From contig CAYUSN010000001.1 in NCBI GenBank assembly GCA_964447415.1, positions 33,735 through 97,734 of the forward strand: a DNA stretch of 64,000 nucleotides. The letters run 5' to 3'. The DNA comes from an uncultured Candidatus Saccharibacteria bacterium (GTDB lineage Bacteria > Patescibacteriota > Minisyncoccia > Phycocordibacterales > EsbW-18). A program made the translations under genes and the position numbers. Under the pieces are notes generated by a model. That model was not told where the DNA came from, searched no databases, and saw only the letters and a list, made by a program, of their open reading frames with translations. Positions 36,536 to 57,701 of this stretch are shown piece after piece; position 1 is the first letter of the stretch; the number at the start of each line of letters is the position of its first letter.

Positions 36536-37906
36536 TTATAACAACGCACGCACTTGGGCAATTTCCTGTTCAAGTTGGTGATCATTTTTTAAATCCTCTT
36601 TTACTTTCTCGTAGGAGTGAATTACGGTGGTGTGGTCTCTTCCGCCGAGTTTTTGTCCTATCATCGGATACGGAAGACTAAAATCCTCACGAAGCAAATA
36701 CATAATAATTTGCCGCGGCTTTACCACCTCTTTTTTTCTGCTTTTTTTATAAATACTGTCCTCATCCAAACTGTAAAAATCGGCGACAATCTTTACCACA
36801 TCCTTTACCGACACCATTTTCTTCGGTTTGATGTTGTTTTTAATTACCTCCCGTATTTCCTGTAGATTTAAATCACGTTTTTTAAGCTGAATCTGACACA
36901 CAATTGAATTGAGTGCCCCCTCAATCTCCCGGATATTACCCTCGATGCTGTTGGCGAGGTGGGTCACCACATCATCCGACAACACAATATTGTGTTCGGT
37001 GGCCTTTGTTTTTACGATGGCGAGACGGGATTCCTGGTCCGGCGGAGGTATATCAACCGTCATACCCGCGTTAAACCGCGATTTTAAGCGGTCTGCGAGG
37101 CTTTGGATGTAATTTGGGTGTCGGTCAGATGAAAAAATAATCTGTCCGTTACGGTCAAAAATTTCGTTAAACAGATGAAAGAGCTCCTCCTGGGTTTTTT
37201 CTTTATTTGAGAGAAATTGAACGTCGTCCATGATGAGCACATCATACTTCCGGTATTTTTCCTTGAAGTTATTAACCGCATTAATTTGAATGGCGTTGAC
37301 CAAGTCCTGCGCAAAACGCTCCGAGGTGACATAAAAAACTTTTTTGTCCGGATATTTCTTTTTTATTTCATTTCCAAGCGCCTGTATGAGGTGTGTCTTT
37401 CCGTGACCGGTCTGTCCGTAGACAAAAAACGGATTGTACCGAAGGCCGGGTTTCTCCAAAATTGCCTGCGCGGCCGCGTGTGCAAGTTCGTTAAACGATC
37501 CGACAACAAAAGAATCAAATGTATACCGCGGGTTGAGGTTGTCCGCTTTGTTGATATATAAATCGCGCAGCGGAAGTTCGTCCCCTGTCGTCCCCTGCTG
37601 CTGGGATGAGTATGAGGAGATTTTTGTGTCACTCGGCGCCTTTGTGGAGATAACATACTCAACCGACCGGATGGTGTAGGAGATGTCGCGGAGTGTTTTG
37701 AGTACCATTTTGTGGTACTTGTCGGCAATAAGGTCTTTGGTGAACGCGTTGGGAACGCCGACAAACACTACCCCGTCTTCAACCTTGACGACGTGGGTGT
37801 CTTTAAACCACGTTTTAAAGATTGCCTTAGAAACCAAAAACTCTATTGAGCCGAGCACCTGCTTCCATAAGTCTTTTGTGTCTGTGGGGGTGATGGTGTC
37901 GGTCAT
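36536..37906 (-). CDS. dnaA: chromosomal replication initiator DnaA
   Basis: 'NPFFVYGQTGHGKTHL' Walker A, 'VLIMDDVQFL' Walker B, C-terminal HTH 'MYLLREDFSLPYPMIGQKLGGRDHTTVIH'. Confidence 0.9.
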   Translation of the reverse strand: MTDTITPTDTKDLWKQVLGSIEFLVSKAIFKTWFKDTHVVKVEDGVVFVGVPNAFTKDLIADKYHKMVLKTLRDISYTIRSVEYVISTKAPSDTKISSYSSQQQGTTGDELPLRDLYINKADNLNPRYTFDSFVVGSFNELAHAAAQAILEKPGLRYNPFFVYGQTGHGKTHLIQALGNEIKKKYPDKKVFYVTSERFAQDLVNAIQINAVNNFKEKYRKYDVLIMDDVQFLSNKEKTQEELFHLFNEIFDRNGQIIFSSDRHPNYIQSLADRLKSRFNAGMTVDIPPPDQESRLAIVKTKATEHNIVLSDDVVTHLANSIEGNIREIEGALNSIVCQIQLKKRDLNLQEIREVIKNNIKPKKMVSVKDVVKIVADFYSLDEDSIYKKSRKKEVVKPRQIIMYLLREDFSLPYPMIGQKLGGRDHTTVIHSYEKVKEDLKNDHQLEQEIAQVRALL

Positions 37907-38554: not shown

Positions 38555-39295
38555 ATGTCACAGGGAATTTTCTTCACACTTATCACACAGCCGCTGTACA
38601 ACGGCATTGTCGGACTCATTCACCTTCTCCCGTGGGCGGATCTCGGTGTGGTGATTATTATTTTTACAATACTCGTACGTTTTATTCTGTTTCCTGTTGC
38701 ACAAAAGGCGCTTCGCACACAGCTCGCGCTGCAGAAAGTACAGCCGAAGATGGATGAAATAAAGGAAAAGTATAAAAACGACCGGCAGGCGCAGGCGTTG
38801 AAAATGATGGAGTTGTATAAAGAGTACAAAGTGAACCCGTTTTCAAGTGTTTTGTTTATGTTCATCCAGATTCCGATTATTTTCGGATTGTACTTTATGT
38901 TTGTGCGCACGGGACTGCCGGACATTCATCCGGACTTTTTGTACTCGTTTATGTCCGTTCCGCCGCCCGTTTCAACGTTTTTTTTGGGTTTTATTGACGT
39001 CGCACAGAAGAGTTTGCCGTTTGCAATACTCGCCGGTGTCTCGCAGTTTTTTCAGGCCTACTTCATGAAAATGCCGGAACCGTCGGGTGCAAAAGAGTCG
39101 TTTGGCGCAACGTTTCAAAAAAGCATGTCGTTTCAGATGAAGTATGTGTTCCCGATTCTTATTGTGTTTATTGCCGCGGCGCTTCCCGGAAGCGTGGCGC
39201 TCTACTGGACCACAAGCAATCTTTTTTCCATCGTACAGGAGAGCATCCTGCGGAGAAAAATGAAAGAGAATCCCGCACGGCAGACCGATGTTTAG
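38555..39295 (+). CDS. yidC: membrane protein insertase YidC (short, Gram-positive-type)
   Basis: 246 aa, 5 TM segments, 'YKEYKVNPFSS' and 'PGSVALYWTTSNLFSIVQ' YidC motifs. Confidence 0.85.
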   Translation: MSQGIFFTLITQPLYNGIVGLIHLLPWADLGVVIIIFTILVRFILFPVAQKALRTQLALQKVQPKMDEIKEKYKNDRQAQALKMMELYKEYKVNPFSSVLFMFIQIPIIFGLYFMFVRTGLPDIHPDFLYSFMSVPPPVSTFFLGFIDVAQKSLPFAILAGVSQFFQAYFMKMPEPSGAKESFGATFQKSMSFQMKYVFPILIVFIAAALPGSVALYWTTSNLFSIVQESILRRKMKENPARQTDV

Positions 39296-40566
39296 TACGA
39301 GTTGTCCGTAGAGGGCACGTTTGAAGCGGCGAGGGAGAGATTGACGAGCCACAACGAGCCGTCTTTTTTATTTATGAAAGCGAGGTGGGTTCCGTCTTGC
39401 GATACCGACAGGTGTGTCATATCCAGACCCTCCGTCACAACGTCGCTCGGGTTAAGCAGGTAGGTCGCGGTGCCGTTTGTGGTATCGATTTTCCAAAGCG
39501 TATCAATGAACGATACGGAACCCTGATACCAATCATCAGGAAGCTTCTGGGTTGCGTTACTTGGAAGTGCACAGTACACCACCGTGGTGTTTTCCCACAC
39601 ACACTTCTCGGGGAGTGTTGCAATCGACAAGGGGGTTGTCTGACGTGTTGCGGTAGTATACGCAACAACGCCCGCGCCGTTTTGCCCCATGCGTCCCAAT
39701 AGAAGTAGTGTCCCGTCAGGGTTCGGGAGTACGGTAAGGCCGGGTGTAGTGGAAGAAACACGCCCGAGCGCACCTGAGGAGGGGTTGAGTGAAAAAGTGT
39801 TGCCGCCGACGGTTCCTGACGGTGCTGTGGTGAGAAAGATTGTTGAACCGGCATTCCATGAGGACTGCCACTGATAGAACGGGTGTGAAAATACACTGCG
39901 TGTTCCTGAATCGGATACAACAAAACCGTTGCTGCCGGTCGGTGACTTCACGGTGTAAAAGACCTGGTGTTGAGAAGGGTGTACAGCAACGGTGAGTGTG
40001 TTGGCGGGCAGGAATGTGCCAGATAGACGGGACTCAGACGGGCTGCTTGTCGAGAGCTCGGCAATTCTTCCTAGGAAGGACTCTACAGTTTCCCCGTCTT
40101 CTTCCTGTATGCGGCGGAACACAACGGTGTTTCCAAAGTTTCCGAACAGTGCTTCGCTCACGCGCGGAATGGTTGTGTTTGAAACACGCGTTGCCTGACC
40201 TGATGCAAGTGAATAGTCATAGATGTGTCCGGTTTCCCGCTCCACGTAGCGGATTGCATACTCGGTGGAGGTGCCGACAAGTCTTTGGATGGCTGTTACG
40301 CCTGCGGTCGGGGTATCGGAAATTTTTATGAGCGCCGAAGCGCGCACGGACGGTGTGTCGGAGAAGCCCGGCGTGTCCGTGTCGCCTGTGTCGGGCGTTG
40401 TCCCGGTGTCGTCGCTAAACATACCGAACGGATTAAATGTCCTTTCACCCGTGTCGGCCGTATCGGGGACCGACCCCTCATCTCCGCGCATCAAAAACCA
40501 CCACGCGCCGGCAAACACAAGGATAAACACGACAAGAATTGCGAGAATGATGAGTGTTTTTTTCAT
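39292..40566 (-). CDS. N-terminally anchored secreted protein, beta-propeller-like (last gene of the T4SS-like operon)
   Basis: N-terminal TM plus S/T/G-rich repeats; 'DGTHLAFINKKDGSLWLVNL' is PD40/TolB-like. Confidence 0.35.
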   Translation of the reverse strand: MKKTLIILAILVVFILVFAGAWWFLMRGDEGSVPDTADTGERTFNPFGMFSDDTGTTPDTGDTDTPGFSDTPSVRASALIKISDTPTAGVTAIQRLVGTSTEYAIRYVERETGHIYDYSLASGQATRVSNTTIPRVSEALFGNFGNTVVFRRIQEEDGETVESFLGRIAELSTSSPSESRLSGTFLPANTLTVAVHPSQHQVFYTVKSPTGSNGFVVSDSGTRSVFSHPFYQWQSSWNAGSTIFLTTAPSGTVGGNTFSLNPSSGALGRVSSTTPGLTVLPNPDGTLLLLGRMGQNGAGVVAYTTATRQTTPLSIATLPEKCVWENTTVVYCALPSNATQKLPDDWYQGSVSFIDTLWKIDTTNGTATYLLNPSDVVTEGLDMTHLSVSQDGTHLAFINKKDGSLWLVNLSLAASNVPSTDNSY

Positions 40567-40569
40567 ATC

Positions 40570-41511
40570 TTATTGTTCAGCAACCGACGAGCACGCCGTC
40601 ACGAAGTTTTTACACTCCGGAGTGTTTTTTCCGACACATACATGCCAGTGTTGTCCACCCTCGCTCTCGAGCCAGTAGTATGTGGTGGAGTTTTTTCGGA
40701 CCCATAAATCGTCGTCCCCGTAATCGTTGCACTGCGTGGAGTTGTTTCGTATATATGCTCCAAGCTTGACGGCAAGTTTAGACTTAAGGTCAAACACGGG
40801 TTTACCGACTCCGTGCGTTTGATGATTCGGTTCCGTTCCTCCGGTGATGATTACGGATGTAGACACAGGACAATTCTTTGGCCACTTGTCCTCAGGGCAC
40901 TTCCCCACTTCCGCGGCAAGTCTTTGCAGTTCACCGAGGGCGGCAGGATGGAGCCCTGCGACATTAATACAGTTTGGGGCACCTTGTCCCGGTTGACAGG
41001 CGTCTTGGTTGATACCGACCCCCCGCACTTTCATTGCTTCCCGCGCGGACTCTTCCTCGGCGGGCGGTGCTGGTGGTGCTGGTGGTGCTGGTGGAGCGGT
41101 ACTGACCGTGCCGCCCACTTCTTGGAGTGTCTGAAAGAGTTTGAAGTTCACCAAGTCGGGGTTGATTTGTTGCAGAATAAGAACGGTGGAGAGCGCAAGT
41201 ATTAACCCGCCGATAATACCGAAAAAGGCCTTTTTTGCGTTCTCCTTACTTCCCACGACATCCGAGGTCATATATACCACCCCGTTGTAGACAAACAGCA
41301 CAACTGCCAACAAAACCGCAATGGCAAGACCGAAGCTGAAGAACGCATTAAGGTAACCCGCGAGCCCACCCTCCGGTGCGACGTTCCCAATGAACGGCAA
41401 ATCTTTTACGAGAAGTTCGTAGTGTCCCGTCACTTGACCGAACACTACCGCCGGAAGGAGTATGGCGGCGATGAGGGAGATGCCCATGATTGTAGTCGTG
41501 TGTTTTTTCAT
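40570..41511 (-). CDS. VirB2/TrbC-like pilin-type N-terminus fused to a PAPP linker and a Cys-rich extracellular domain
   Basis: Signal peptide followed by two hydrophobic helices separated by a short polar loop (VirB2 topology), then APPAPPAPPAPPA, then a ~190-aa domain with >=10 Cys. Confidence 0.35.
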   Translation of the reverse strand: MKKHTTTIMGISLIAAILLPAVVFGQVTGHYELLVKDLPFIGNVAPEGGLAGYLNAFFSFGLAIAVLLAVVLFVYNGVVYMTSDVVGSKENAKKAFFGIIGGLILALSTVLILQQINPDLVNFKLFQTLQEVGGTVSTAPPAPPAPPAPPAEEESAREAMKVRGVGINQDACQPGQGAPNCINVAGLHPAALGELQRLAAEVGKCPEDKWPKNCPVSTSVIITGGTEPNHQTHGVGKPVFDLKSKLAVKLGAYIRNNSTQCNDYGDDDLWVRKNSTTYYWLESEGGQHWHVCVGKNTPECKNFVTACSSVAEQ

Positions 41512-41515
41512 ACGG

Positions 41516-42226
41516 TTATTCGAAGGTGACGTTTATACTTTCAGTTGCCCGCTGTAACAGGTTTTTAACGCCGTTGAGTGAAAGCTGTATATACACAGAA
41601 CTCGGCTCATCGGCCTGTGCAGAGAGCGTTCCGGTTACGGCTTCGGGGAGTTTTGTGCCGTTTGCACTCCATGTGTATGAAAGTGAACTATCCGTGCGTG
41701 ATGTTGCGGTGAAAAAAAACGGGTAAGCTTCGATATCAAAGTTTTTTTCAGTTGTGACGATGTTCCGCGGCAAGGCGCGCTCAAAAACGATGCCCTCGAG
41801 TGGTTTGTTTTGGTAGAGGCGGACAAACGGCTGTGTTTGGAGAACACGAACTGAACCGAACTCGGAATCGGTCCCGTCGGATACCTGCACAGAGACAAGC
41901 GGTGATTCTCCGAACTGCGAGCCGGAGAAGACAAACGAACGCTTCCCTACACCGGACTGAGCGCCGTCCACGACCCCCTCCCTTTTCCATGTATAGGTAA
42001 GTGTGTCCGGATTTCCCTGCTCCGTCGGAGGCAGTGCATACACAGTGACCTCTCCCCCCACCGGATACAGCGCCTTGCCCCGATACAAGGGCGGAATATA
42101 CGAGTGAGACTCCCAGATTAGCTCAACGGACGAGCTAATGCTGTTTCTCGCCAAGTTAATTTGTGCGTCCGAAAAAAGCGGAAAAGCAAGGAGGCAGAAA
42201 AGTGTTGTAAAAAAAATCTTTTTCAT
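41516..42226 (-). CDS. secreted hypothetical protein
   Basis: Signal peptide MKKIFFTTLFCLLAFPLFSDA; beta-rich. Confidence 0.35.
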   Translation of the reverse strand: MKKIFFTTLFCLLAFPLFSDAQINLARNSISSSVELIWESHSYIPPLYRGKALYPVGGEVTVYALPPTEQGNPDTLTYTWKREGVVDGAQSGVGKRSFVFSGSQFGESPLVSVQVSDGTDSEFGSVRVLQTQPFVRLYQNKPLEGIVFERALPRNIVTTEKNFDIEAYPFFFTATSRTDSSLSYTWSANGTKLPEAVTGTLSAQADEPSSVYIQLSLNGVKNLLQRATESINVTFE

Positions 42227-42753
42227 ATTTCCGACGGTGAAGGGTACATGTCAGTCATATGGGGTCTTGCCTCTCGTTTTGCATATTCCCCTGCGGACCG
42301 AGAACCCCAGTCAGCGTTTTTTATGGATTCAGGAATGCGATCCACAACGCTCTTTGTCACCGACTGTACGGTGCCCGCGGCTTTTGTAAGGTTGCCGAGG
42401 TTTGGCACACCTTTTTTACTCAGAAGCTGTATGCCGGTCTTTTCTTCTGCTCTGGTCAGTGCAATCATAAGTATAACACCGACGGTGATGGCAGGCAGGG
42501 CGCTTATCGCCGGAACGAGCTCAATAATATATGCTGACAGCATCGTCAGGAGTTTTTTAGGTGTGACCAACGGAAGTCCGAGAATTAAAAACCAGATAAG
42601 AAAAATCACGAAAGAACCGACATCCGCGAACGCCTGTCCGACAACCGGAATGATTGAGATAATGTCGAGAATAATCGCAGTTGCAATCATAAGTGCCGCC
42701 GCTGTATCGCTGATTTTAGATTCTTTTTTTTCTTGTTGCTGGTTTTCGTCCAT
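42223..42753 (-). CDS. integral membrane protein (3 TM), T4SS-associated
   Basis: 176 aa, hydrophobic core; 4-nt overlap with the neighbouring genes. Confidence 0.35.
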   Translation of the reverse strand: MDENQQQEKKESKISDTAAALMIATAIILDIISIIPVVGQAFADVGSFVIFLIWFLILGLPLVTPKKLLTMLSAYIIELVPAISALPAITVGVILMIALTRAEEKTGIQLLSKKGVPNLGNLTKAAGTVQSVTKSVVDRIPESIKNADWGSRSAGEYAKREARPHMTDMYPSPSEI

Positions 42754-42755
42754 AG

Positions 42756-44696
42756 TTACTCCACATTCTTAAGGTCGACGTTTGCCGTGACGCCGCCTTC
42801 CGTGGGTGGATGTGTGTCGCCGTGGGAAGTGACCTTTTCGGCAAGCGGGGGTACATCCACCGTTTTCTTTTCGTCCTGTGTTTTTTGCAGACGCCACTCA
42901 TCGCGTGACTTTTGGAGCGCCATGAGTTGTGACGGATCGGAAGTAATAATCTGGTCTTCCGTATACGATGCGATGGTTTTGATGGCAACGTGCTTGAGGC
43001 CGGCAAAAAAGATTCCCTCCCCCACCTCCGATTCAAGAAGCAGGTACTTCTCCTCATCAGTGAGGTTGAAGGTCTGCTGCACCAAGTCAATGGATGACGG
43101 TGATTGCTTCAAAAGCAGCTGGATGGACGAGTTGGTGATAATCGGCAGTCCGTACGGAGAGCGCAAGAAGTCCCCCACATCTTGTGTGATGGTGGCGATG
43201 CCGAGATAGTATTTGCGTCCGCGCTTTGCAAGTCCGAACAAAAGCGATGCGGTGTCCTCTTCCTTCATCATCCACCACGCCTCATCCACGACGAGCAGGC
43301 GTTTTTTGAGTGTGCGGCGTACCGCACCCCAGATGTAGTGTGTGATGAGGTACATAGCAACCGGCTTGAGCTCGTCTTCCATGTCGCGCACGGAGAACAC
43401 AACGAACTTTTTATTGATATCGACGTTTGTCGGTTGGTTTATGAATCCTGACCACGTTCCTTTGGTGTACTTGGTGAGACGCTGCACCAGTGACTCACCC
43501 CCTTCCATGCCGGCAAGCACAAGCTCGAAGTCCGACAACAGCGGCGACTCGGTTCCTGAAAAGTCGCGCTCCCCTGTGATGTCTTTAAGCGCGTAGGTTT
43601 CCGTGATGGCGCGGTCAATAATGGCGTCTTCCTCGGGGGTAAGTCCGCCGAACATGATGCGGAAGAGACCGACCAACGTCACAATCTGCGAACGCAGCAC
43701 ATTTGCGGGTGTTTCATCTTCGCGCACAGGCGGCAGGTCAAACGGGTTGATGTGGTGCTCGGAAGTAAGTGAGATGTTGAAATAACGTCCGCCCATAGCC
43801 TCGGACATGTGTTCATACTCGCGTTCCGGGTCAATCACAATGACGTCGGTGTCAAACATCAGCGTGCGGAGAATTTCAAGTTTTGTCGCGTATGATTTTC
43901 CGGCACCGGAGGTTGCAAAGGTCACCGAGTTGTAGTTCGGCATTGAAAAGCGGTCAAACAGAATGAGGCCTGAGTTGTGCCGGTTAAGACCGTAGAGGAT
44001 TCCTTTGTCGGAGGTGAGGTCAAACGACACAAACGGAAAGAAGCTTGAAAGCGGGGACGTGTTGAGCTTGCTGTGTACACCGAGCTCGTCTTGTCCGATG
44101 GGGAGCACGCTGCGGAAGCCCTGCTCTTGCTGAAAGAGCGCTGGTTTCAAGTAGATAAGACGGCTTTCAAGCAGGGAGCGTATCTCGGACTCCATTTTAT
44201 CGAGGTCGTCTTCCTTGTCCGCATAGATGGATATATAGAGACCGACATCAAAAAGCTTCTCGGTTGCCTGTTGCAGTTGGTCGCGGAGGAGCTCGAGGTT
44301 TTGGTATGCAGCGTCAAGCATCGGGTCGCGCACAAGCCCGCGCTCTTCGCGGATGTGGATCTGGCTTTGCACTTCAGCGACGCGCTTGCGAAATTCTTTA
44401 AGCACGGTTGCGGTATCTACAGGAATGATGGAAATGGAGATATCGAATACTTTGTCGATATTGATAATCGGCGAGAGCCAGTTGTCAGGCAGAAAGCGCG
44501 GATATGAAATCGCAAAAAACGTGCGGACAACCTTGTCGCCGAGGTTAAGTGCGCGCGATGACACACGCAACGCTGACGGTGCGATGATGTCCTGCAGCTC
44601 AAGCACACCCGCCTCATAGATGTCTTTCGGCAACACCGGCGTTATCTGCGGCATGTCTTTTTTCTTTTTTCCTACGATGATGTCGAAAATTCCCAT
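42756..44696 (-). CDS. virB4: type IV secretion system ATPase VirB4/TrbE/TraC family
   Basis: 'TFATSGAGKSYATK' Walker A, 'LLVVDEAWWMM' Walker B, 'GIATITQDVGDF'; N-terminal 'SYPRFLPDNWLSPII' VirB4-N pattern. Confidence 0.85.
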   Translation of the reverse strand: MGIFDIIVGKKKKDMPQITPVLPKDIYEAGVLELQDIIAPSALRVSSRALNLGDKVVRTFFAISYPRFLPDNWLSPIINIDKVFDISISIIPVDTATVLKEFRKRVAEVQSQIHIREERGLVRDPMLDAAYQNLELLRDQLQQATEKLFDVGLYISIYADKEDDLDKMESEIRSLLESRLIYLKPALFQQEQGFRSVLPIGQDELGVHSKLNTSPLSSFFPFVSFDLTSDKGILYGLNRHNSGLILFDRFSMPNYNSVTFATSGAGKSYATKLEILRTLMFDTDVIVIDPEREYEHMSEAMGGRYFNISLTSEHHINPFDLPPVREDETPANVLRSQIVTLVGLFRIMFGGLTPEEDAIIDRAITETYALKDITGERDFSGTESPLLSDFELVLAGMEGGESLVQRLTKYTKGTWSGFINQPTNVDINKKFVVFSVRDMEDELKPVAMYLITHYIWGAVRRTLKKRLLVVDEAWWMMKEEDTASLLFGLAKRGRKYYLGIATITQDVGDFLRSPYGLPIITNSSIQLLLKQSPSSIDLVQQTFNLTDEEKYLLLESEVGEGIFFAGLKHVAIKTIASYTEDQIITSDPSQLMALQKSRDEWRLQKTQDEKKTVDVPPLAEKVTSHGDTHPPTEGGVTANVDLKNVE

Positions 44697-44699
44697 AGG

Positions 44700-45365
44700 T
44701 TATTTGACCGCCGACAATGCAATCGGTTTTTCTGAATCGCCCGGGTTGAACAGTTTGTAGTAGAGCTCCACGAGCTCCTCGGTCTGCAGTTGCACCGCGC
44801 GGATACCCGCGCGCGAGAGGTTTTGCGACACGACGGCGACACGTTGTTCAAGCTGACTACGGTGTTCCTCAAACGCAATTATTTTCTGTTCGGGATTTTC
44901 TTTACCTTTACCGAATCCGCCGAGTACACCTCCTAACGCCCCCTTCACTCCCCCTTTTGCCGCAGACACAACAGCCGGTGAGTACGGAACAACGACAAAA
45001 AAGCTTTTTGACATGATGTTGACGTTTTCCGTGAAGCCTTTGACGAACTCGATGTATTCACGCGTCTGAATTTTAATGAGTTCGATCGTTTGTTCTTTAA
45101 TCTGGTTTTCCAGAAGCGCAATATACGGTCGAATGTCTAACTCACGGGATTGAATGAAAATCTGCGTCGGAAACTCGATGGAATTCAGCAGGTTCTGAAA
45201 CTGCATAATAATAGCCGCTTGCTCGTCTTCTGACTTGAGCGCAAAGTTAAGGGAACTGCACAACAGCACCGCGCGCATGGAGCCGTCCTTGAGAATGACG
45301 ATGCCGCTGCGGATTTCTTTGATGGGGACGAATACCTGCGCACTCTGCGCTTTTTGTTGCGCCAT
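44700..45365 (-). CDS. T4SS-associated conserved hypothetical protein
   Basis: 221 aa, no TM; Gly-rich 'AKGGVKGALGGVLGGFGKGK' segment; lies between the VirB3-like and VirB4 genes. Confidence 0.35.
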   Translation of the reverse strand: MAQQKAQSAQVFVPIKEIRSGIVILKDGSMRAVLLCSSLNFALKSEDEQAAIIMQFQNLLNSIEFPTQIFIQSRELDIRPYIALLENQIKEQTIELIKIQTREYIEFVKGFTENVNIMSKSFFVVVPYSPAVVSAAKGGVKGALGGVLGGFGKGKENPEQKIIAFEEHRSQLEQRVAVVSQNLSRAGIRAVQLQTEELVELYYKLFNPGDSEKPIALSAVK

Positions 45366-45443
45366 ATATCGTATGGTAGCGGAAAAAAGGGATTTCGTCA
45401 GCCTGTATAAGTGAATTGCGGGGTTTCTGTGAGGCGCGGATGT

Positions 45444-45857
45444 TTACTCCTGCTCGCTGTACAGTGAATCATGCACGTCGAGGCTCCACGCAAGGTCGCG
45501 GAGCTTGGAGTCGGAGAGCCGGGGGACGGTGACGCCGATATCCTGCGTCTCAGACACCCCCTTCTTTTCGGCTTTTCTCGGCTCCTTTTTCCAGATATAG
45601 AGTTTGCTTGAAAGAAGAAAACGAAAAGCCGACTCGAGAAAAAAAACGAACGGTTTCTCATTTACTTTATAGAACGCAAGCGCCACCGCGAGCCCGGCGA
45701 CTGCCAGAATAAGCGGCACCCCGATGATTTTCGGGACAAACACCCAAATCACGACGGCAAGACCCGCTCCGCCGGCGAGGTAGATGAACTGTTTGAACGT
45801 GAAAGGTCCGAACACCTTGTCTTCAACGTCGATGAACTGCGGTACTTCAAATTTCAT
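45444..45857 (-). CDS. VirB3/PrgI-like small membrane protein
   Basis: 137 aa; 'MKFEVPQFIDVEDKVFGPFTFKQFIYLAGGAGLAVVIWVF...' followed by two TM helices, as in PrgI/VirB3 proteins upstream of VirB4. Confidence 0.45.
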   Translation of the reverse strand: MKFEVPQFIDVEDKVFGPFTFKQFIYLAGGAGLAVVIWVFVPKIIGVPLILAVAGLAVALAFYKVNEKPFVFFLESAFRFLLSSKLYIWKKEPRKAEKKGVSETQDIGVTVPRLSDSKLRDLAWSLDVHDSLYSEQE

Positions 45858-45978
45858 CCCGTTAGAGATAAGAAACGCGGGGCGTTTCCATCGTTATCAC
45901 ACCTTCGTGTGCACACGAACAATATGTCGACGTTTTTTGAATGGCAGGCACGAACATACAAAGGTAATCTCTAACGGG
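45858..45978. promoter_or_regulatory. structured leader: 12-bp perfect inverted repeat bracketing 97 nt and abutting the start codon, plus a 12-bp perfect palindrome
   Basis: CCCGTTAGAGAT (45858-45869) / ATCTCTAACGGG (45967-45978); CGTGTGCACACG at 45906-45917. Confidence 0.4.
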
Positions 45979-45986
45979 ATTCATGG

Positions 45987-46604
45987 CTATTTTATCGGTT
46001 CTCGGTACGGGTCAACGCCGGTGTGAGCTGGTTTTGTTGGTGGTGTCTGCGTCGGTGTCTCGCCGATACTGGTTGTTTCCGCGGGCATACGAAATACTCC
46101 CTCCATTTTTTCTTTTGCGAAGCTCATATCTGATGTGGTGGTTGTGTTTTTTTGCGCCGCAGGCTGTGCGACAGGTTGCTGTGGCGTCGTCTGTGCCGGC
46201 GCCTGTTTTTGCGGAAGAATACCTGCAGCGGGCGGCTGGGATTCGGTTGCAACACGCTCCTCACCGCTAAATTGTTTCTCACTTTTTTCAAGAAACTCAG
46301 TAAGATCGTGTCGGATTTTTTCGAATACATCCTTATTGATGTCTGTGACTATGGCAGATGCGGTACTCGGTGGTATGTGCCCCTGTCGTATGAGGTTGTT
46401 CATAAACGTCGAGGGGCTTTCCAAACCGAGCATGATAAGCATCACCTCCTCTTCAAGTACACCCCCCTGGTCGACGCGTAGCTGGTGTTTGGCGGCAAGT
46501 GCCTGTACATATTTGGACGAGTCAATGTGCAGGAGCGCCTCGCGCACCCGGGGCGGCATGATGGCGAGCTGTTTTTTGATGATGTCTTGTGGTGTCGAGC
46601 TCAT
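45987..46604 (-). CDS. hypothetical soluble protein (T4SS operon)
   Basis: 205 aa; Q/P/T-rich middle region. Confidence 0.35.
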   Translation of the reverse strand: MSSTPQDIIKKQLAIMPPRVREALLHIDSSKYVQALAAKHQLRVDQGGVLEEEVMLIMLGLESPSTFMNNLIRQGHIPPSTASAIVTDINKDVFEKIRHDLTEFLEKSEKQFSGEERVATESQPPAAGILPQKQAPAQTTPQQPVAQPAAQKNTTTTSDMSFAKEKMEGVFRMPAETTSIGETPTQTPPTKPAHTGVDPYREPIK

Positions 46605-46610
46605 GGTTGT

Positions 46611-48794
46611 TTATGGTCCGGGTGGGGTCGGTGTGGCTGGTGGTGTCGCCGGAGTTGCGGGTGCGGTGGGAGCTGCGGGTGTCCCTCCGGTCGTCTGTTG
46701 TGGCGGAGTTAATTCGGATTCCTGTTGTTTCATAACGTCCAGGATTTGTTTTGCGAGAGCCTCCTCGGGTTTTTCTTTGCTTTTTCTGAGCGTGTCGCCT
46801 GCCTGCCGCGTGGATGTAAAGGCTCCGGTGGAAAGCGTTTCTCCGTATGCGCGCTGCGAACCGGATGTCTGACCGGAAGCCTGCTTCACTATTTTGGAGA
46901 GATCTCCCATGGCGGTTATGTACGACCTGATACTACCACCCAATCCGTCACGGTATGCATTCAATCCCCGCTCCGCATTGTCCGCCTTATCCTCGAGTGT
47001 TTTTCGTTTAGCAGAGTCTAGTTCGAGTTTTGCGCTTTGACGAAGGGCTTTTATGTAATCCCCCCGTTCGTTTATTACCTTCATTGCGGCATCGGCCTCC
47101 TTTCTTTGTGCGTTTGTAAGCTGTGCACTGGCTTTCGCGAGCGCTTCTCGTTCATCCGAGCCTTTTCCTTGAAGCTCACGAAGTGCGCCTTGTGCCCTTT
47201 CAAGATCAGCTACTGCGTCATCGCGTTTCTTTCGAGCCGCTTCGCGCTCTTTTTCAGATCCGGACAGTGCGTCCACAGAGGTCCATTCATCTCGGGCTGT
47301 TGCCAGCGCTCTTTTCTTTTCCTCTATCTCCTTCTTCTGGTCCGCGATTGCCATTGCAGGCGCGTATTTCTTTCCCCGCTCCTCCAGTTTTTCTGTCCGT
47401 GCCTTGCGCGCACCCACTAAACCACCCTTATTACTAGCCTCTCCAAAATCACCGCCCACACTTTTGATACCCCGTGCATCAAATGTTGAGGTTTTTAGCC
47501 TGTCACCACCGAGAAGAAGACCTTTGGCAAGAGAGCCCGAGAAGCCACCGCTCTTTGCCTGTTCTCCAAGCCACGAGGATTGCGACATTCTTTCCCCGAC
47601 CCGCCCAAGCGTGTTTCGTCCTAGCGCCGCGGCACCACCAAACGCTGCCTTGCCGGTCCACTTTGCAACCGCATTACCGGACATGTTTGCCGTCTGCTTT
47701 GATGCGACAAGGGCGACAATTAAAAGTCCGATGACAATGACATACTGAACAACAACTGATACGAGATTTGCAAGTGCGGCTCCGGCCCCGCCTCCTGTAG
47801 CGAGTATTGCTCCTTGCACACCCTCCTTAAAGCCCGGGTCGTTAATCACCAACACAACGACTAATATAAGCACAAAGAACACCGGTGCAAATGTTGCCTG
47901 GTCGGCAAGTGTTTTCCACCATTTTTCCGAGTGTTTTTTCAGTTGTGGGAGCAATTCTCCGATAAAGGCAATGGGGGACGTTATCATCAAGATGATAAAC
48001 ATTACAAACCGCACCAAAAGCATGACCGCCATTACAAACAAAACGAATGCCGCAACGAGTATGGTGACGATTCCCAACAGTGTGCTAAAGAGAGCGTACA
48101 CCCCCGCACTGACCCCCGTGAAGGCGGATGCGCCGCCCTCAAGTGCAGCACCGAGTTTGCCCTCATCACCGATGATGCGCGTCAAACTCAACCCGTTCAT
48201 TATTGAGGTTGTCAGTCCGGTTGTGGGGATGACACCAAAAAGCTTCTGCCCGCCCCCCCGTTGTTTGATGTTTGCCGCGGCTTTATAGAACTCATAGGCG
48301 GTGAGGTTGGATACATCAATGACCACCTTTGTAAACATCAAACTGAAGTTGATGAGCAGTGCGGCGATGATGATTTTCGGAATAAGTGATTTGTTGTACG
48401 GACCGCTTCCCCACGAACCCAAGATGATGTTGATGGAGACAAGGAGGAGCACGAACACGAACAAAATATTGGCGACATCACGTATAGCACGCCACGCGAG
48501 ATTAATTGCTTGGATGCCGGTATACCCCGGCTGCCCACCCTCTATTATCAGGCGCATTTTTACGATGGTAATGTCGATGACAAGCTCAAGAACAAAGGCG
48601 GCAAGCGCAAGAAAAAGACCGAACGCCTGAAGGACCATGTTGAGAAGAAGTGTCACTCCGTCCACAAAGGCGTTCCCTGCCCAAGAAAATGGGTCCCACC
48701 ATTCGGCGGATACGGTTTGGGGAAGAAGTAAAAAGGCGGACACAAAAAGCACCGGCAGCAGAAACTTCAGATTTTTTTTGAACCACGTGTACAT
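46611..48794 (-). CDS. VirB6/TrbL-like polytopic membrane protein with long charged coiled-coil C-terminal region and P/T-rich tail
   Basis: 727 aa; signal peptide, >=6 TM segments, then ~300 aa of coiled-coil-like K/E/A-rich sequence ending in PATPATPPATPTPPGP. Confidence 0.5.
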   Translation of the reverse strand: MYTWFKKNLKFLLPVLFVSAFLLLPQTVSAEWWDPFSWAGNAFVDGVTLLLNMVLQAFGLFLALAAFVLELVIDITIVKMRLIIEGGQPGYTGIQAINLAWRAIRDVANILFVFVLLLVSINIILGSWGSGPYNKSLIPKIIIAALLINFSLMFTKVVIDVSNLTAYEFYKAAANIKQRGGGQKLFGVIPTTGLTTSIMNGLSLTRIIGDEGKLGAALEGGASAFTGVSAGVYALFSTLLGIVTILVAAFVLFVMAVMLLVRFVMFIILMITSPIAFIGELLPQLKKHSEKWWKTLADQATFAPVFFVLILVVVLVINDPGFKEGVQGAILATGGGAGAALANLVSVVVQYVIVIGLLIVALVASKQTANMSGNAVAKWTGKAAFGGAAALGRNTLGRVGERMSQSSWLGEQAKSGGFSGSLAKGLLLGGDRLKTSTFDARGIKSVGGDFGEASNKGGLVGARKARTEKLEERGKKYAPAMAIADQKKEIEEKKRALATARDEWTSVDALSGSEKEREAARKKRDDAVADLERAQGALRELQGKGSDEREALAKASAQLTNAQRKEADAAMKVINERGDYIKALRQSAKLELDSAKRKTLEDKADNAERGLNAYRDGLGGSIRSYITAMGDLSKIVKQASGQTSGSQRAYGETLSTGAFTSTRQAGDTLRKSKEKPEEALAKQILDVMKQQESELTPPQQTTGGTPAAPTAPATPATPPATPTPPGP

Positions 48795-48803
48795 AAACTA
48801 ATG

Positions 48804-50537
48804 CTACGGCTCAAACTCGACGGAAATATTGTTCCACCTCCAACCGTCTGTGTTGCCCTCATTTCCTTCAGCGCTTCCATATGCGCCGAGTTGGAGGAAG
48901 TACCCTGTCTGGCCTTTAGAATTCGTGCTTGAAATAAATTCAGCAGTTGGGCTGAGATTGATGCGCACCACCTGGCTGCCGCCTTGGCGTACGATAACCT
49001 CGGCACGACCTGCCGCAGGCTCGTAGTCGACCTCAAATGTGTATGTCTGACCGGTCTGGAGCCCGAAGTTCTGTGACTTTTGGTTTGAGTTGTCTACCAC
49101 ACAGCTGTCTAGTTGTGTGACGGCGCGTACTTTATCGGGGCTGTCCTGCACAGCGGTTACCTCTATGATACGGTTTGCACCACCGGCCCAATCGATACTG
49201 CCGCGGTTTAACCACAAGACGTTGTACTGCGTTCCGGGCCCGTTCCACTCTCCTACTGTAAGGTCAAGGGAAATCACGATACGCCTGTAATCGCCCCAGC
49301 GTTTGCCTGCAGGAAGCGGTAGGTTTTCACCGAAGTAGTCGTTTACCGTAGCCGACGTGTAGGTGATGCTTGATCCGGGTGTGCCCGATGTCGGGTTTGT
49401 TGGTGTGCACTGACCGCCACCCCCGCCATCATCATCTCCCCAGATGCCGCCGGTATCAACGAGCGGGTCGTCGAAGTCTGTCTCATAGTCGTAGCCGGTG
49501 AGGCCCTCATCTTTCGTAAGAATGTCGGTAAGGAGGTAGACCGCGACCAAGCTGATGATTTCATTGATTTCATCTGCCGCGACGATTGAATCAAGTTTTA
49601 TCCCGAACGATTTTTCAAGACTTGTTTTAATAGTGTCTCCCGGTGTGATGACCTGTGCCGGGTCACAGTAACTGTAGTAATCTTCGTGCACGGTGCCGTC
49701 CTCCTCCACCCAATCCTCTGTGTAGCAGTTTTGCACTTCCTTGCTCAGGAAGCCGTTGGCAAAATCAAGCTTCCATTTTGATTCATCAGCTTTTTCGGCA
49801 ACAACTTTGTTGAGCTCCTCTACGGTTTCAAGATATGCGCCGTACGGAGTGTTGTACGGGTTTGCCGCCATTTCTATCCACGCCTCCCACCCACCCGCAT
49901 AGAAATCTCCGCCAAGGAATGCGTCGACATCGACGCCCGCCATTTGGGAGAGCGTACAGCTTGTCAGACCGCTTCCTCCGTAGCCGCCGTATCCTCCGCT
50001 ACGCCCGGACAGTCCTTGGTAGTATTGCGTGAGCGCAAGTTGGATTTGGGCGCGAAACGGTGAACAGAGAAATCCGCCGCCGATGTTTTGTATGTAGGTG
50101 CCCGCGGCCTGGTCGGCGATACCGGTAAGGTATTGGGTGATGTTTTGCACGAACGACGGGTTGCCGCCGTACCCCTTCTGTGACCAGCCCACTGCCTGTC
50201 CGGTGACGAGTTCAAGAAGCGCGTTTTTTGTCGCTGACACAAGACAGTCCTCAATCATGTCCTTTACGGCGCTTGCCCAGTCAGTGACCGGCACTTGCGT
50301 GAGCGCAAAACCGAGCACTGCGCTTATAACAAACTGGATAAGTGCGGCTTCGGCACATTGCTCAGCGTATTTTTCGAATAGTTCATCAAAGGACGGTCCG
50401 TCGTAATACGTCTGTTCTTCCTCTTGTGCGTATGCTTGCGGCACATATGCGGCGGAGAAAAATCCAGTACAGAAAACCGCAAGGAGCAGCGAAGCGGCTA
50501 TTTTTTGGAGTGTGCGTGATTGAAATAAAAAAATCAT
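48804..50537 (-). CDS. large secreted protein (577 aa), hypothetical; G-rich segment and beta-rich C-terminal half
   Basis: Signal peptide; 'GGYGGYGGSG'; 'DDDGGGGGQCTP'. Confidence 0.4.
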   Translation of the reverse strand: MIFLFQSRTLQKIAASLLLAVFCTGFFSAAYVPQAYAQEEEQTYYDGPSFDELFEKYAEQCAEAALIQFVISAVLGFALTQVPVTDWASAVKDMIEDCLVSATKNALLELVTGQAVGWSQKGYGGNPSFVQNITQYLTGIADQAAGTYIQNIGGGFLCSPFRAQIQLALTQYYQGLSGRSGGYGGYGGSGLTSCTLSQMAGVDVDAFLGGDFYAGGWEAWIEMAANPYNTPYGAYLETVEELNKVVAEKADESKWKLDFANGFLSKEVQNCYTEDWVEEDGTVHEDYYSYCDPAQVITPGDTIKTSLEKSFGIKLDSIVAADEINEIISLVAVYLLTDILTKDEGLTGYDYETDFDDPLVDTGGIWGDDDGGGGGQCTPTNPTSGTPGSSITYTSATVNDYFGENLPLPAGKRWGDYRRIVISLDLTVGEWNGPGTQYNVLWLNRGSIDWAGGANRIIEVTAVQDSPDKVRAVTQLDSCVVDNSNQKSQNFGLQTGQTYTFEVDYEPAAGRAEVIVRQGGSQVVRINLSPTAEFISSTNSKGQTGYFLQLGAYGSAEGNEGNTDGWRWNNISVEFEP

Positions 50538-51538
50538 GAGGATGGTGCGGCGGGGTTTATAAGCAGATACCCGGGTTCCGTTTTGGAGAACGTAATATCC
50601 GCGTTTTCAAACACAGTGCGCAACGCCCTGAACGCTTCCCCGCGCCGAGTCGTGCTTTCATTATAGGTTGTGAACACAGAAAGTGCGAGAAGCGGATCTT
50701 CGGTGAAACTGTGGAAATCATTTACCGTGCTTCGTACCAGCGAAAGCGCGTTGATGATGCCGAGATGTGCAGAAACGATATTTTTTGGGACGCTTATTTG
50801 AAGCAATCCGGCGAGTACATAGTCGTATTGTGCGATGACCTCTTTGAGATCCCGGAGGAATGTTGTTTCGTCTCCTGTCTGCATGAATGACACCAACACA
50901 ATAAGTTCATTCTTCACCTCGTCACCTTCAGGGACCGAGAGCAGTGCACCGACATCGTTTCCGTATTCCCGAAGCGCCTTCTCGTCTGATTGTGCTGAGG
51001 CGCGTACATCAGACAGCGAGTACACCCGCGGTGCCGTTTGCTCGGGCGGGTCGTATGCCGGGATGCTTTGTACGATTGCAAGTGCATCGTCTTTTGAGAG
51101 CGGTTGTCCTGATTGTTTGAGCGCCAGGTAGTTGGAAAGCAAAAGCCCCGAGACCTGTTCGGTGTACGAAAGGGATTCCCAGTTCGGGTCATCTGTCGGG
51201 TCAATAAGCTTTGCAAATTCCTGTTGTCGGGTCAGCGCCGTGTTTTGTGCCTCCTGTTTTTCAGTGGCGTCTGAAATACCGTCTCCGTCGGTGTCAGGAT
51301 TGTTCGGGTCAAAGCCCCACAACATCTCCTCCCAGTTTTTGAGGCCGTCTCCGTCGGTATCAAGTTCTTCCGTGTAGGTTTTTTCGGTGCCGGTTACCGT
51401 AATGTCGGGCTCGTCCGTCCCTGGTGCCTTTGAATCACTTCGTATAAGCCATGTGGCGGCGACAATTGCGATGACAACAATGGCGAGTGCGACAACTTTA
51501 CTGCTTGGTTTGGTTTGTTCCATGTGCATACACCCCAA
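50534..51538 (-). CDS. membrane-anchored protein with thrombospondin-type-3-like Ca-binding repeats (first gene of operon)
   Basis: N-terminal TM; '[12 protein letters not shown]' and '[12 protein letters not shown]' DxDxDG repeats. Confidence 0.4.
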
Positions 51539-51586: not shown

Positions 51587-52303
51587 ATGCGCACCTATTT
51601 TTTGGGATATCTGGGTATATCCAGCACTAATGCATTAGTGCTGGATATAGCTGTTCTGTTCCTTTTTTTCCCACTGTTTGCCTTTGCCGCGACTTTTTCG
51701 CGCGACCTTACGTTGGGCGACAGCGGACAGGATGTGCTTGAACTGCAGAAAATTTTTAATGCGGATGAACGAACGCGCGTTGCCGTGTCCGGGCCGGGTT
51801 CTCCCGGAAACGAGACGGTATATTTCGGCGTTTTGACGGCGGACGCCGTACGGCGATACCAGGAGCTCTACGCCCCAGAAATCCTTATTCCGCTTGGTCT
51901 TTCGGTCGGGACGGGGTATTTCGGGCAATCCACGCGTTTGCACATGGCAGGGGCGCCGAAGCCGTTTGATAACATAAAAAAAGAGCCGGAGAAGATTGGC
52001 AGACCGAAGATTGACAGTATTACTCCTCAGAAAGGCGGTGTGGGAACGAAGGTGACGATTTACGGAAGCGGTTTTTCTGCGACAGGCAATAACGTTGTTT
52101 CCGCCCTTGAAGTGTTTCGTGATATTCCGTCACCGGACGGACGAACCCTCGAAATCACGATTAAGGGGCCGTTTCCCGAAGAGTTTCTTGAAAAAAACAG
52201 GGAATTCTATCAGAAATACAAGCCGGAGATGGAGTATACTATTGGGGTAAAAAACGATTATGGTGAGAGCAACTTCGGTTCCTTTATTTTCACTTTTTAC
52301 TAA
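51587..52303 (+). CDS. secreted peptidoglycan-binding-domain (PG_binding_1-like) + IPT/TIG-like domain protein
   Basis: '[18 protein letters not shown]...[12 protein letters not shown]' PGBD pattern; '[24 protein letters not shown]' IPT-like. Confidence 0.5.
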
Positions 52304-52305: not shown

Positions 52306-52818
52306 ATGACCACGCGCACATTTCTTCCTCGTTTCGCCGGTTTTCTATTTTTGTGTGCGGTCGCGGTGCTTCTCGGGTTTTTACCGTCGAGTCCGCTCCC
52401 TGCTGAAAAGGCTGAGGCGCAATTAAACTATCTGGTGCCCTTCGGGGGGGAGCTTGTGTATACCGATTACACAACCTGCAGTTGTGGATTCATTATTTTT
52501 ACCATCAATGACGTTTCGACGAATCGAGAGCATCGGGTCATATGGTTTTATTTTCTGCAATTCCTCAGCGATATCGGTCTGGATTTCGGTATTTTTGAAG
52601 GTTTAATACCGCGTGTGTATTTATATTGTATCGGCCCCAAATGGGCAACCGGCTCATGCTTCTGGGGCAACCCGAATACCGTCGGAAATTATTTCCCGTA
52701 TGAGGGTGCAACCTGTTGGATGATTAACCCTGAGTTGACACCTCCGTGCGTTCCTGTGGAAGGGGCGGGGGACGGGTATCTCATCGGTATGGGAACCTCA
52801 GCGTTTGATGCGTTCTAA
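52306..52818 (+). CDS. secreted Cys/aromatic-rich hypothetical protein
   Basis: Signal peptide; 170 aa. Confidence 0.35.
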   Translation: MTTRTFLPRFAGFLFLCAVAVLLGFLPSSPLPAEKAEAQLNYLVPFGGELVYTDYTTCSCGFIIFTINDVSTNREHRVIWFYFLQFLSDIGLDFGIFEGLIPRVYLYCIGPKWATGSCFWGNPNTVGNYFPYEGATCWMINPELTPPCVPVEGAGDGYLIGMGTSAFDAF

Positions 52819-53589
52819 CTCAAGCCAGTCGGACAGGGACAATTCCTCCGCACGGGCGCTCTGTGAGTGTCCGCGCTTTGCAAGAAACACTTCGAGTGTT
52901 TCTTTTGTAAAATGAGATGAGAGATTTGAGGGGAGTACTTTTCGTTTGTGCGCAAATCCGGCTTTCACGATTTCAAAAAATCTTTTTTCAGAGACGCTTG
53001 TAAAATTATTTTTTGAAATGTTGTCGATGAGAAGCACGGCGGAATCCACTTTCGGCGCTGGAGAGAAATATTTTTTGGAAACACTCGTCACCAGCTTCGG
53101 CGTACCGTACGCTTTCACGGAAATCGAGAGAATACTTTCTTTTCCGTCGCGCGCAACAATACGTTGTGCGACTTCTTTTTGCACTAACAGCACTGCACAC
53201 GACGGCGGATGTATATGTGAGAGAAACTTCTCCAAAATTTCTCCGGTGATGTAGTACGGAATGTTGGCGACGAGTTTGTATCCGCCGTGCAGTACGTCGT
53301 GTTCCGCCGGAGTGAACCGCAATACATCATCTTCAATGAGTGTAAGGTGGTGTGACGAGATTTCTTTTTTAAATTTTTCCTGCAACAGCGGCAGCAGTTC
53401 GCGGTCTTTCTCAACAGCAACAACCCGTGCACCCGCGGACAACAACGCTTCGGTGAGAACTCCCTTCCCCGGTCCGATTTCAAGTACGACATCACCGCCG
53501 TTGATACGCGCCGAATCAATCATCCGCGCGACGACTATTTTTGACTTCAGAAAATTCTGCCCCAGAGATTTTTTCGGTCGGTGTCTCAT
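52798..53589 (-). CDS. rsmA: 16S rRNA (adenine1518/1519-N6) dimethyltransferase RsmA/KsgA
   Basis: 'KKSLGQNFL' N-terminus, 'VLEIGPGKGVLT' SAM motif, and 'NIPYYIT'. Confidence 0.85.
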   Translation of the reverse strand: MRHRPKKSLGQNFLKSKIVVARMIDSARINGGDVVLEIGPGKGVLTEALLSAGARVVAVEKDRELLPLLQEKFKKEISSHHLTLIEDDVLRFTPAEHDVLHGGYKLVANIPYYITGEILEKFLSHIHPPSCAVLLVQKEVAQRIVARDGKESILSISVKAYGTPKLVTSVSKKYFSPAPKVDSAVLLIDNISKNNFTSVSEKRFFEIVKAGFAHKRKVLPSNLSSHFTKETLEVFLAKRGHSQSARAEELSLSDWLELERIKR

Positions 53590-53590
53590 A

Positions 53591-57660: not shown

Positions 57661-57701
57661 CAAACCTTTAGAAAAGATGTCAAAAAAGGTAAAATTACCC
57701 C

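Follow-up and report, generated by a model that had tools for sequence, protein, structure and literature searches.

A probable chromosomal, non-conjugative type IV secretion operon of a Paceibacteria-group Patescibacterium, with a pilin-like protein fused to a putative cell wall hydrolase

What an eleven-gene operon beside the chromosomal genes dnaA and dnaN does for its bacterium is the question raised by a stretch of 64,000 nucleotides (nt), hereafter the window, from an uncultured Candidatus Saccharibacteria bacterium (positions 33,735 to 97,734, forward strand, of contig CAYUSN010000001.1, assembly GCA_964447415.1). The operon lies at 39292-51538 on the minus strand. A first reading made from the letters alone (the sequence-only reading) had taken it for a type IV secretion system (T4SS)-like apparatus by which organisms of the candidate phyla radiation interact with hosts, and this agrees with the chromosomal context and the literature. 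We put at about 75% the probability that the operon encodes a T4SS that a Patescibacterium of the Paceibacteria/Parcubacteria group carries on its chromosome and inherits vertically, and that this system derives from the FATA class of mating pair formation systems (MPF-FATA) and is no longer used for conjugation. The system is not under-described, as had been proposed: it is the Patescibacteria T4SS already treated between 2023 and 2025 (PMC10633639, PMC12102498 and one section of PMC12857230). What may be new is a pilin that appears to carry interchangeable hydrolase modules.

All 11 open reading frames (ORFs) of the operon were recovered where the sequence-only reading had placed them, and they are near-contiguous. 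Most junctions measure -4 to +9 nt, the larger gaps being only those from g205 to prgI (129 nt) and from prgI to trsD (78 nt), and the end of g424 shares 4 nt with the convergent yidC gene. For g334, the listed start was TTG 51538; ATG 51529 is probably the true one, because Met4 is invariant in an alignment of 46 homologues. Consensus promoter and terminator scans of the operon region gave nothing informative. In transcriptional order, with topologies taken from a hydropathy scan of all operon proteins and lengths in amino acids (aa), the genes are:

50534-51529, minus strand: g334, first gene; N-terminal membrane anchor, TSP3-type Ca-binding repeats and a conserved C-terminal domain without an assigned fold
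48804-50537, minus strand: g577; secreted, its N-terminal region conserved and containing Cys, its C-terminal region variable
46611-48794, minus strand: VirB6/TrbL-like protein, 727 aa; polytopic (residues 1 to ~420) with a coiled-coil tail, an 'extended VirB6'
45987-46604, minus strand: g205; soluble, probably cytoplasmic, its conserved N-terminal domain joined by a Pro/Gln-rich linker to C-terminal DPYREPI
45444-45857, minus strand: PrgI/VirB3-like two-helix membrane protein, 137 aa
44700-45365, minus strand: TrsD-like protein, 221 aa; VirB4 N-terminal domain as its own gene
42756-44696, minus strand: VirB4 ATPase, 646 aa; central and C-terminal P-loop domains
42223-42753, minus strand: g176; small membrane protein with ~3 helices
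41516-42226, minus strand: g236; secreted, with repeated 'YTWK-NG' modules
40570-41511, minus strand: putative pilin-enzyme fusion, 313 aa; signal peptide, pilin hairpin, (PAP)n linker and Cys-rich domain
39292-40566, minus strand: g424, last gene; membrane-anchored and extracytoplasmic, a probable TolB-like beta-propeller

VirB4 anchors the assignment, as had been claimed. Its translation contains Walker A (SGAGKS) and Walker B (LLVVDEAW) motifs, it scores 366 bits against the NCBIfam model conju_CD1110 (cut-off 325) in a match that spans only profile positions 185-734, and it matches Pfam P-loop_TraG with an E-value of 2.6e-22. A VirB4 scan with one genome per species returned 282 relatives, and the locus counts given below refer to the best 80 of these, all of them metagenome-assembled genomes (MAGs) whose VirB4 is 72-89% identical to that of the window. 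Most are labelled Patescibacteria, Paceibacterota or Parcubacteria, and some 'Saccharibacteria' or plain 'bacterium'.

The missing front part of the VirB4 profile is accounted for by the preceding 221-aa ORF, which matches positions 99-233 of the mycoplasma VirB4 model VirB4_plasma in NCBIfam (E 2.3e-14), positions 8-78 of CD1110 and, weakly, the TrsD model (E 0.019). As judged by these profile matches, the gene is the separately encoded N-terminal domain of VirB4, equivalent to the 'TrsD' of the literature. The split is considered a real and conserved arrangement because trsD ends in a TAA stop and is a separate ORF in 80/80 loci at variable spacing to virB4; a frameshift or read-through artefact was rejected, since the two ORFs are kept despite the differing spacing. 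At 44694-44702 of the window the trsD TAA, one codon (CCT) and the virB4 ATG share a frame, and the same is seen in one relative (L004), while the spacing in other relatives is 7 or 53 nt. This in-frame layout is not conserved, so fusion by read-through is probably not the general case.

The gene two positions upstream of virB4 had been called VirB3/PrgI-like, and its 137-aa product indeed matches Pfam PrgI (PF12666) with 42.8 bits (cut-off 27; E 8e-11) and forms a two-helix hairpin by hydropathy; PrgI was found in 77 of the 80 loci. The 727-aa polytopic protein, named earlier as VirB6/TrbL-like, has no direct Pfam match itself. It has 85 homologues, and six of the 62 that were aligned match Pfam TrbL/VirB6 (PF04610; best E 3.3e-9). 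An AlphaFold model of its residues 1-420 (predicted local distance difference test, pLDDT, 81.2; predicted template modelling score, pTM, 0.74) was compared with the PDB by Foldseek, and chains of R388 TrwI/VirB6 took ranks 1-4 (probability 1.00, E 0.012-0.046), led by 8rt9_F (E 0.012, probability 1.00, target-normalised template modelling (TM) score 0.41). Legionella DotA was fifth and further TrwI/VirB6 chains sixth and seventh, the TrwI/VirB6 chains overall having probabilities of 0.98-1.00, E-values of 0.012-0.15 and target-normalised TM scores of 0.40-0.44. Since the transitive Pfam matches and the fold search agree, though with modest E-values, the VirB6-like assignment is retained with moderate confidence. 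The C-terminal 300 residues form a coiled-coil, Pro/Thr-rich cytoplasmic tail. VirB4 is therefore not the sole T4SS component of the locus, PrgI and a VirB2-like pilin being supported by profiles and the VirB6-like protein by transitive Pfam matches and fold.

The conservation of gene order that had been put forward for checking across Patescibacteria was found in almost every locus with full flanks, where ksgA is followed by g334, g577, VirB6, g205, PrgI, TrsD, VirB4, g176, g236, the pilin and g424, and then by yidC, dnaA and dnaN. All 11 genes together with both flanks stand in identical order in dozens of the 80 loci, which argues for vertical inheritance and not mobility. One exception in orientation is a prgI homologue (L001, contig CAZFMQ010000003.1, 8751-9206) encoded on the other strand from the remainder of its operon, owing either to a local inversion of small extent or to an artefact of assembly. 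In the window the flanking genes are:

35214-36314: dnaN, flanking the operon
36536-37906: dnaA, flanking the operon
38555-39295: yidC, convergent with the operon
52798-53589: ksgA, on the other flank (ksgA and uvrD together 52798-55519)

On the ksgA side the order is a divergent gene for a secreted PG_binding/TIG protein, ksgA, uvrD and an M23/LysM peptidase gene. The guanine-plus-cytosine (GC) content of the operon, ~52%, equals that of its neighbours. A mobile island was rejected as an explanation, given this composition and the synteny conserved across species, and the operon belongs to the core chromosome and is vertically inherited.

Median identity falls from 77% for VirB4 through 60% for TrsD, 51% for PrgI and 36% for the N-terminal part of the pilin to 31% for g424 and g236, 30% for VirB6, 29% for g577 and 26% for g334 and g205. 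This gradient fits a conserved motor with variable, host-facing parts, that is, a fixed 11-gene module with a fast-evolving surface.

The pilin-like protein carries hydrophobic segments at residues 4-30, 49-86 and 93-117, corresponding to a signal peptide and two helices; in the AlphaFold model the helices cover residues 50-82 and 86-116. Its close homologues match T4SS_pilin (PF18895) with up to 37.5 bits and also match TrbC, and a pilin family hidden Markov model (HMM) built in this analysis recognises the window protein with an E-value of 1.9e-34. The pilin topology recognised by the sequence-only reading is thus borne out by a supported T4SS_pilin domain. The conserved cysteines of the tail and the positive-inside loop SKENAKK fit a pilin with its tail outside the cell.

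The Cys-rich domain of ~160 aa (residues ~150-313, 40573-41064; AlphaFold pLDDT ~85) had 1317 cluster representatives at E<=1e-3 in an exhaustive profile search. Among the best 150 of these relatives, 110 match T4SS_pilin (PF18895) and 10 match TrbC, SLT is additionally present in two and a phage lysozyme domain in one, and in none does a Pfam model lie over the Cys-rich domain itself. In an alignment of 150 diverse homologues E227, H230 and D241 are invariant, and C172, C181, G224-T226, H233, E282, H288 and H290 nearly so. The resulting pattern, H-x2-H-x7-D ... E-x5-H-x-H, is similar to the zinc site of LAS peptidases, with a H233-x7-D241 spacing one residue longer than the M15/M74 norm. A local hhalign alignment placed H230/H233/D241 on H110/H113/D120 of E. 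coli MepA, with P only 0.024; H113 and D120 are zinc ligands of MepA. The fold of the domain also gives weak matches to LAS zinc peptidases. On this basis we lean, by a modest margin, towards predicting that the tail is a LAS-type zinc peptidase. Several searches speak against that prediction: the global hhalign comparison with MepA was uninformative, only the local zinc-motif alignment appearing; Foldseek of the pilin-fusion model against the PDB gave noise only; the isolated domain had no Pfam match even at E 10; and its profile had no match among PDB sequences at E<=10.

The strongest argument for regarding the window tail as probably a peptidoglycan hydrolase is that hydrolase tails are found at the same position elsewhere. 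A pilin gene stands at the position of the fusion in 69 of the 80 loci, seven of which have two pilins. A tail of 60-280 aa is present on nearly all of these pilins; BLAST groups the tails into 37 clusters unrelated to one another, and the Cys-rich domain of the window occurs in only seven loci. A Pfam search of 52 tails found CHAP in five, SLT in three, Peptidase_M15_3 (E 2e-16) and NlpC/P60 in two each, and Amidase_5 and Peptidase_M15_2 in one each. The individual cases include:

L071:13734-14624: T4SS_pilin (26.9 bits) and Peptidase_M15_3 (58.5 bits) in one ORF, the clearest case
L018:15373-16728: pilin and SLT (37 bits) in one ORF
L019:14870-15865: pilin and SLT (26.7 bits) in one ORF
L011, L018 and L022: weaker CHAP or NlpC/P60 matches

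By hhalign, the Cys-rich family showed no relation to the M15_3 tail of L071 or to an SGYR-motif tail in L040. Some loci with two pilins (L071, L018) tend to have one tail of peptidase type and the other of glycosidase type, a pairing that mirrors the lytic transglycosylase and CHAP peptidase of VirB1 in some monoderm T4SSs (PMC12102498).

The pilin thus appears, from domain matches, to carry interchangeable peptidoglycan hydrolases. No description of a pilin-hydrolase fusion was found in the searchable literature, and it may be noted elsewhere. It is tentatively suggested, at rather less than even odds, that the pilin or pilus of the Paceibacteria T4SS itself digests host peptidoglycan by means of swappable hydrolase modules, the swapping of tails tracking host wall chemistry. 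If true, the pilus would have enzymatic subunits in which the functions of VirB2 and VirB1 are merged.

The fusion might instead be no pilus subunit at all. As a membrane-anchored VirB1 analogue, with the hairpin serving as anchor or docking element, it would open the cell's own wall for a pilus-less channel of the Gram-positive style; Gram-positive T4SSs are generally without pili and need a VirB1-type hydrolase (PMC12102498, PMC10633639). The window has a single pilin-domain gene and no free small pilin, which suits this explanation, and a 160-aa globular domain on each subunit might hinder helical packing. However, the hypervariability of the tails among close genomes (the 37 clusters) looks more host-facing than would be expected of a housekeeping autolysin. 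Both termini of VirB2-type pilins face outward, as in F- and T-pilus structures, which would allow a domain held by a linker to be placed on the outside of the filament. At the parasite-host interface of Patescibacteria, possible T4SS pili have also been reported in the form of tubular structures (bioRxiv 10.64898/2026.06.21.733656). The VirB1-like anchor is rated less likely than not, and is the most probable of the alternatives.

Besides the tail of the fusion, the accessory set comprises g334, g577, g205, g176, g236 and g424, making seven, five of which are surface-exposed or membrane-bound. The sequence-only reading had counted seven secreted or membrane proteins of unknown function; by way of correction, the product of 44700-45365 is not an unknown but the VirB4 N-terminal domain, and that of 45987-46604 has neither signal peptide nor membrane helix. 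For the six accessory proteins besides the fusion, we infer putative roles only.

The latter protein, g205, has no hydrophobic segment by hydropathy, and in its family a low-complexity Pro/Gln linker leads to an invariant terminal DPYREP(I) (D198, P199, Y200 and E202 invariant in 44 homologues). Each of 59 loci holds exactly one ORF ending in DPYRE, and in the loci mapped g205 homologues are encoded between VirB6 and PrgI. The window protein has no match in Pfam or the PDB, and it is a probable cytoplasmic adaptor of the machine, docking by DPYREPI in the manner of a short linear motif.

The secreted g577 has a signal-like segment at residues 12-33 and a conserved N-terminal region (~90-345) in which W118, C158, C194, C271 and C291 are invariant among 44 homologues. 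It has no match in Pfam or in the PDB-sequence profile search. The C-termini of some homologues contain an F5/8-type-C lectin or Ig-like domain, and two of 120 homologues contain DUF4141, a domain whose genes sit inside tra gene clusters of Bacteroides conjugative transposons; a tblastn search with a DUF4141-positive homologue against plasmids gave no meaningful match. The gene is present in 60 of the 80 loci, directly upstream of the VirB6 gene. This position and the DUF4141 matches hint at a role like that of the pilus-tip protein VirB5, and g577 is a possible surface or tip adhesin.

The remaining accessory proteins are largely as the sequence-only reading had described them. The Ca-repeat membrane protein g334 (334 aa) matches Pfam TSP3_bac with 36.9 bits (cut-off 25), retrieved only Ca-binding repeats in the PDB-sequence profile search, has a single hydrophobic segment at residues 9-36 as its N-terminal anchor and is at the same position in 48 of the 80 loci. 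In the three-helix protein g176 (176 aa), detected in 41 loci, the hydrophobic segments lie between residues 14 and 103 and D30 is invariant among 31 homologues; it has no match in Pfam or the PDB. The g236 protein, found in 72 loci, has an N-terminal signal-like sequence and internal YTWK-NG repeats forming two modules here and three in most relatives. The modules are probably Ig-like, the PDB-sequence profile search having returned Ig-like matches only, none of them significant. The beta-propeller assignment of g424 (424 aa; 57 loci), which is anchored by a hydrophobic segment at residues 1-29, depends on a weak PDB-sequence profile match to TolB (E 0.0012) over ~100 residues.

Taken together, a machine of the following kind may be proposed. 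VirB3, VirB4 (with TrsD) and VirB6 would form the membrane translocon, to which the cytoplasmic g205 would dock by its invariant C-terminal peptide. The pilin would be inserted so that both its termini lie outside the cell, and the machine would polymerise it or at least present it. By displaying a zinc-peptidase-like wall hydrolase domain outside the cell on its Pro-rich linker, this protein would unite the roles of VirB2 and VirB1. The hydrolase domain could then cut peptidoglycan locally, in the cell's own wall, the host's or both, allowing the conduit to reach the host envelope, and the fast-evolving secreted proteins g577, g236, g424 and g334 may act as adhesins or as a scaffold at the contact site. 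The cargo might be effectors delivered to the host or host molecules imported, and DNA conjugation by the operon is unlikely.

Several points weigh against the T4SS reading or parts of it. No VirB8-like protein (PrgL/TraM) was matched among the operon proteins in Pfam, NCBIfam or PDB profiles; VirB8 is mostly undetectable in Patescibacteria (PMC12102498). The T4SS_pilin match of the window protein itself (residues 52-112, 41176-41358) reaches 24.5 bits, just below the cut-off of 26.6, and pilus assembly and packing with a bulky C-terminal domain are points of doubt. As had been noted, no relaxase, VirD4 coupling protein or VirB11 was found in Pfam scans of the large ORFs of the 64-kb window; other parts of the genome might encode a type IV coupling protein (T4CP) or a relaxase.

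An absence of relaxase and T4CP from the window would also suit a T4SS serving DNA uptake (competence), as Helicobacter ComB and archaeal Ced do, and importing host DNA as a source of nucleotides, which Patescibacteria do not synthesise (PMC12857230). VirB4 has a local match to the DNA-import protein CedB in NCBIfam (E 5.4e-7), but at 28.6 bits it is far under the cut-off of 700 and confined to the P-loop region. In Southlakia epibionticum, transposon sequencing (Tn-seq) by Wang et al. in 2023 showed the T4SS genes and pilins to be essential (PMC10633639), and the T4SS is needed for epibiotic growth independently of ComEC-mediated DNA uptake (PMC10633639, PMC12857230). Competence there depends on type IV pili and ComEC, and deletion of comEC abolishes transformation and leaves the cells viable, with the T4SS still essential (PMC10633639, PMC12857230). 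The window has separate type IV pilus genes as well: pilN and pilM (14853-16636, minus strand) lie in the same origin-proximal stretch as a T2SSE ATPase gene (26664-28451, plus strand), which is read as pilB because of them. Given above all the ComEC result in Southlakia, DNA uptake is regarded as a minority possibility and an improbable one.

It is very improbable that the operon represents an intact or decayed conjugative element (an integrative and conjugative element, ICE, or a plasmid) integrated in the chromosome: its MPF-FATA descent, with CD1110 from a conjugative transposon of clostridia as the best match of VirB4, and the three serine recombinase genes in two low-GC islands of the window would favour it, but the recombinases are at least 8 kb from the operon, in DNA of 40% as against 52% GC and with housekeeping genes between, the yidC/dnaA/dnaN and ksgA/uvrD flanks are kept in identical order in dozens of species, and the large ORFs of the window include no relaxase or T4CP.

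No integrase was found in or beside the operon, recombinases being restricted to the separate low-GC islands (~40%) at the two window ends. The first, 1-10824, looks like an element integrated at tRNA-His: its large serine recombinase gene (9163-10782, plus strand) overlaps with its 3' end the tRNA-His gene (10750-10824, minus strand), and it encodes an APH-family kinase, a histidine phosphatase, a SocA/Panacea antitoxin, an SH3 protein and a secreted SNase nuclease with Excalibur. The second, 57036-64000, is probably another mobile element, inserted into comM; a ComM/Mg-chelatase-like ORF (57036-57749, minus strand) is without the first ~107 profile positions and abuts low-GC DNA, which contains genes for a UvrD-like helicase (57702-59363, plus strand) and serine recombinases (60066-61154 and 61139-61576, minus strand).

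Divergent from the operon, 51587-52303 (plus strand) encodes a secreted PG_binding_1 and IPT/TIG protein with positional homologues in nine related loci, and beyond uvrD 55922-56929 (plus strand) encodes a secreted M23 peptidase with LysM repeats. Either could be a candidate VirB1-like contributor. The signal-peptide coding part of 51587-52303 includes a perfect 34-nt palindrome at 51616-51649, with 17-nt arms and no spacer (TATATCCAGCACTAATG/CATTAGTGCTGGATATA), ~90 nt upstream of the first operon start. It is unique in the window, and its interpretation as a conserved operator was rejected, as it is absent from 81/81 loci.

The overall picture of the Patescibacteria T4SS is left unchanged by this locus, which shows 11 genes travelling together in one large class, Paceibacteria. 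It offers testable roles for 'hypothetical' members (the split VirB4 N-domain, the g205 adaptor and, in the VirB5 position, what may be a tip adhesin), while the pilin-hydrolase fusions suggest a testable mechanism of wall breaching and the tail type is a marker that may correlate with host range.

Comparison with known systems may begin with the tail, set against the LAS families MepA/M74, VanX-VanY/M15, the Sonic hedgehog N-terminal domain and pneumococcal VldE. Unlike these enzymes, the Cys-rich domain has extra conserved cysteines, is always extracytoplasmic and mostly pilin-fused, and has no profile-level match to the Pfam or PDB LAS families. The pilin part resembles the VirB2/TrbC/TraA pilins of diderms in its signal peptide, two hydrophobic helices, short basic loop and T4SS_pilin match, whereas those pilins are small single-domain proteins and the window protein, at 313 aa, adds an enzyme-like, Cys-rich domain of ~160 aa on a Pro-rich linker.

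The operon shares with conjugative MPF-FATA T4SSs (pCF10 Prg/Pcf, pIP501 Tra, pGO1 Trs, CTn2 CD1110) the PrgH(VirB6)-PrgI(VirB3)-PrgJ(VirB4) order; it has a TrsD-like protein, as does pGO1, and outer-membrane core proteins are absent from both. MPF-FATA systems need a wall hydrolase of the VirB1 class, with SLT and CHAP domains in some monoderm T4SSs (PMC12102498). In contrast to them, the window operon is without a coupling protein, relaxase, PrgB-type adhesin or detected VirB8-like protein (PrgL), includes a VirB2-type pilin, bears its hydrolase-like domain on that pilin and not on a separate VirB1, and is chromosomal and non-mobile.

The closest likeness is to the T4SS of Patescibacteria. 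Quinonero-Coronel et al. in 2025 described the VirB4 proteins of Patescibacteria as forming one monophyletic clade inside MPF-FATA; the clade associates with TrsD, PrgI/VirB3, VirB6 and VirB2-like pilins of PF18895, with a relaxase almost always absent (PMC12102498). The window operon has the same VirB4, separate TrsD, PrgI/VirB3, VirB6 and PF18895 pilin with no relaxase nearby, as does Southlakia (SEML1_0006-0019, PMC10633639), and its site beside dnaA, dnaN and ksgA is that reported for Paceibacteria T4SSs (PMC12102498). A 2025 review of T4SS nomenclature treats the Patescibacteria system as a special case, and as the first T4SS shown to be essential to the growth of its own bacterium (PMC12857230). 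The seven accessory genes of this Paceibacteria group are not named for the systems in the accessible parts of PMC12102498 and PMC10633639. Southlakia has an array of six pilins and encodes peptidase and lysozyme separately, downstream of virB4, whereas the window operon has one pilin gene, and the hydrolase-like domain is fused to its product.

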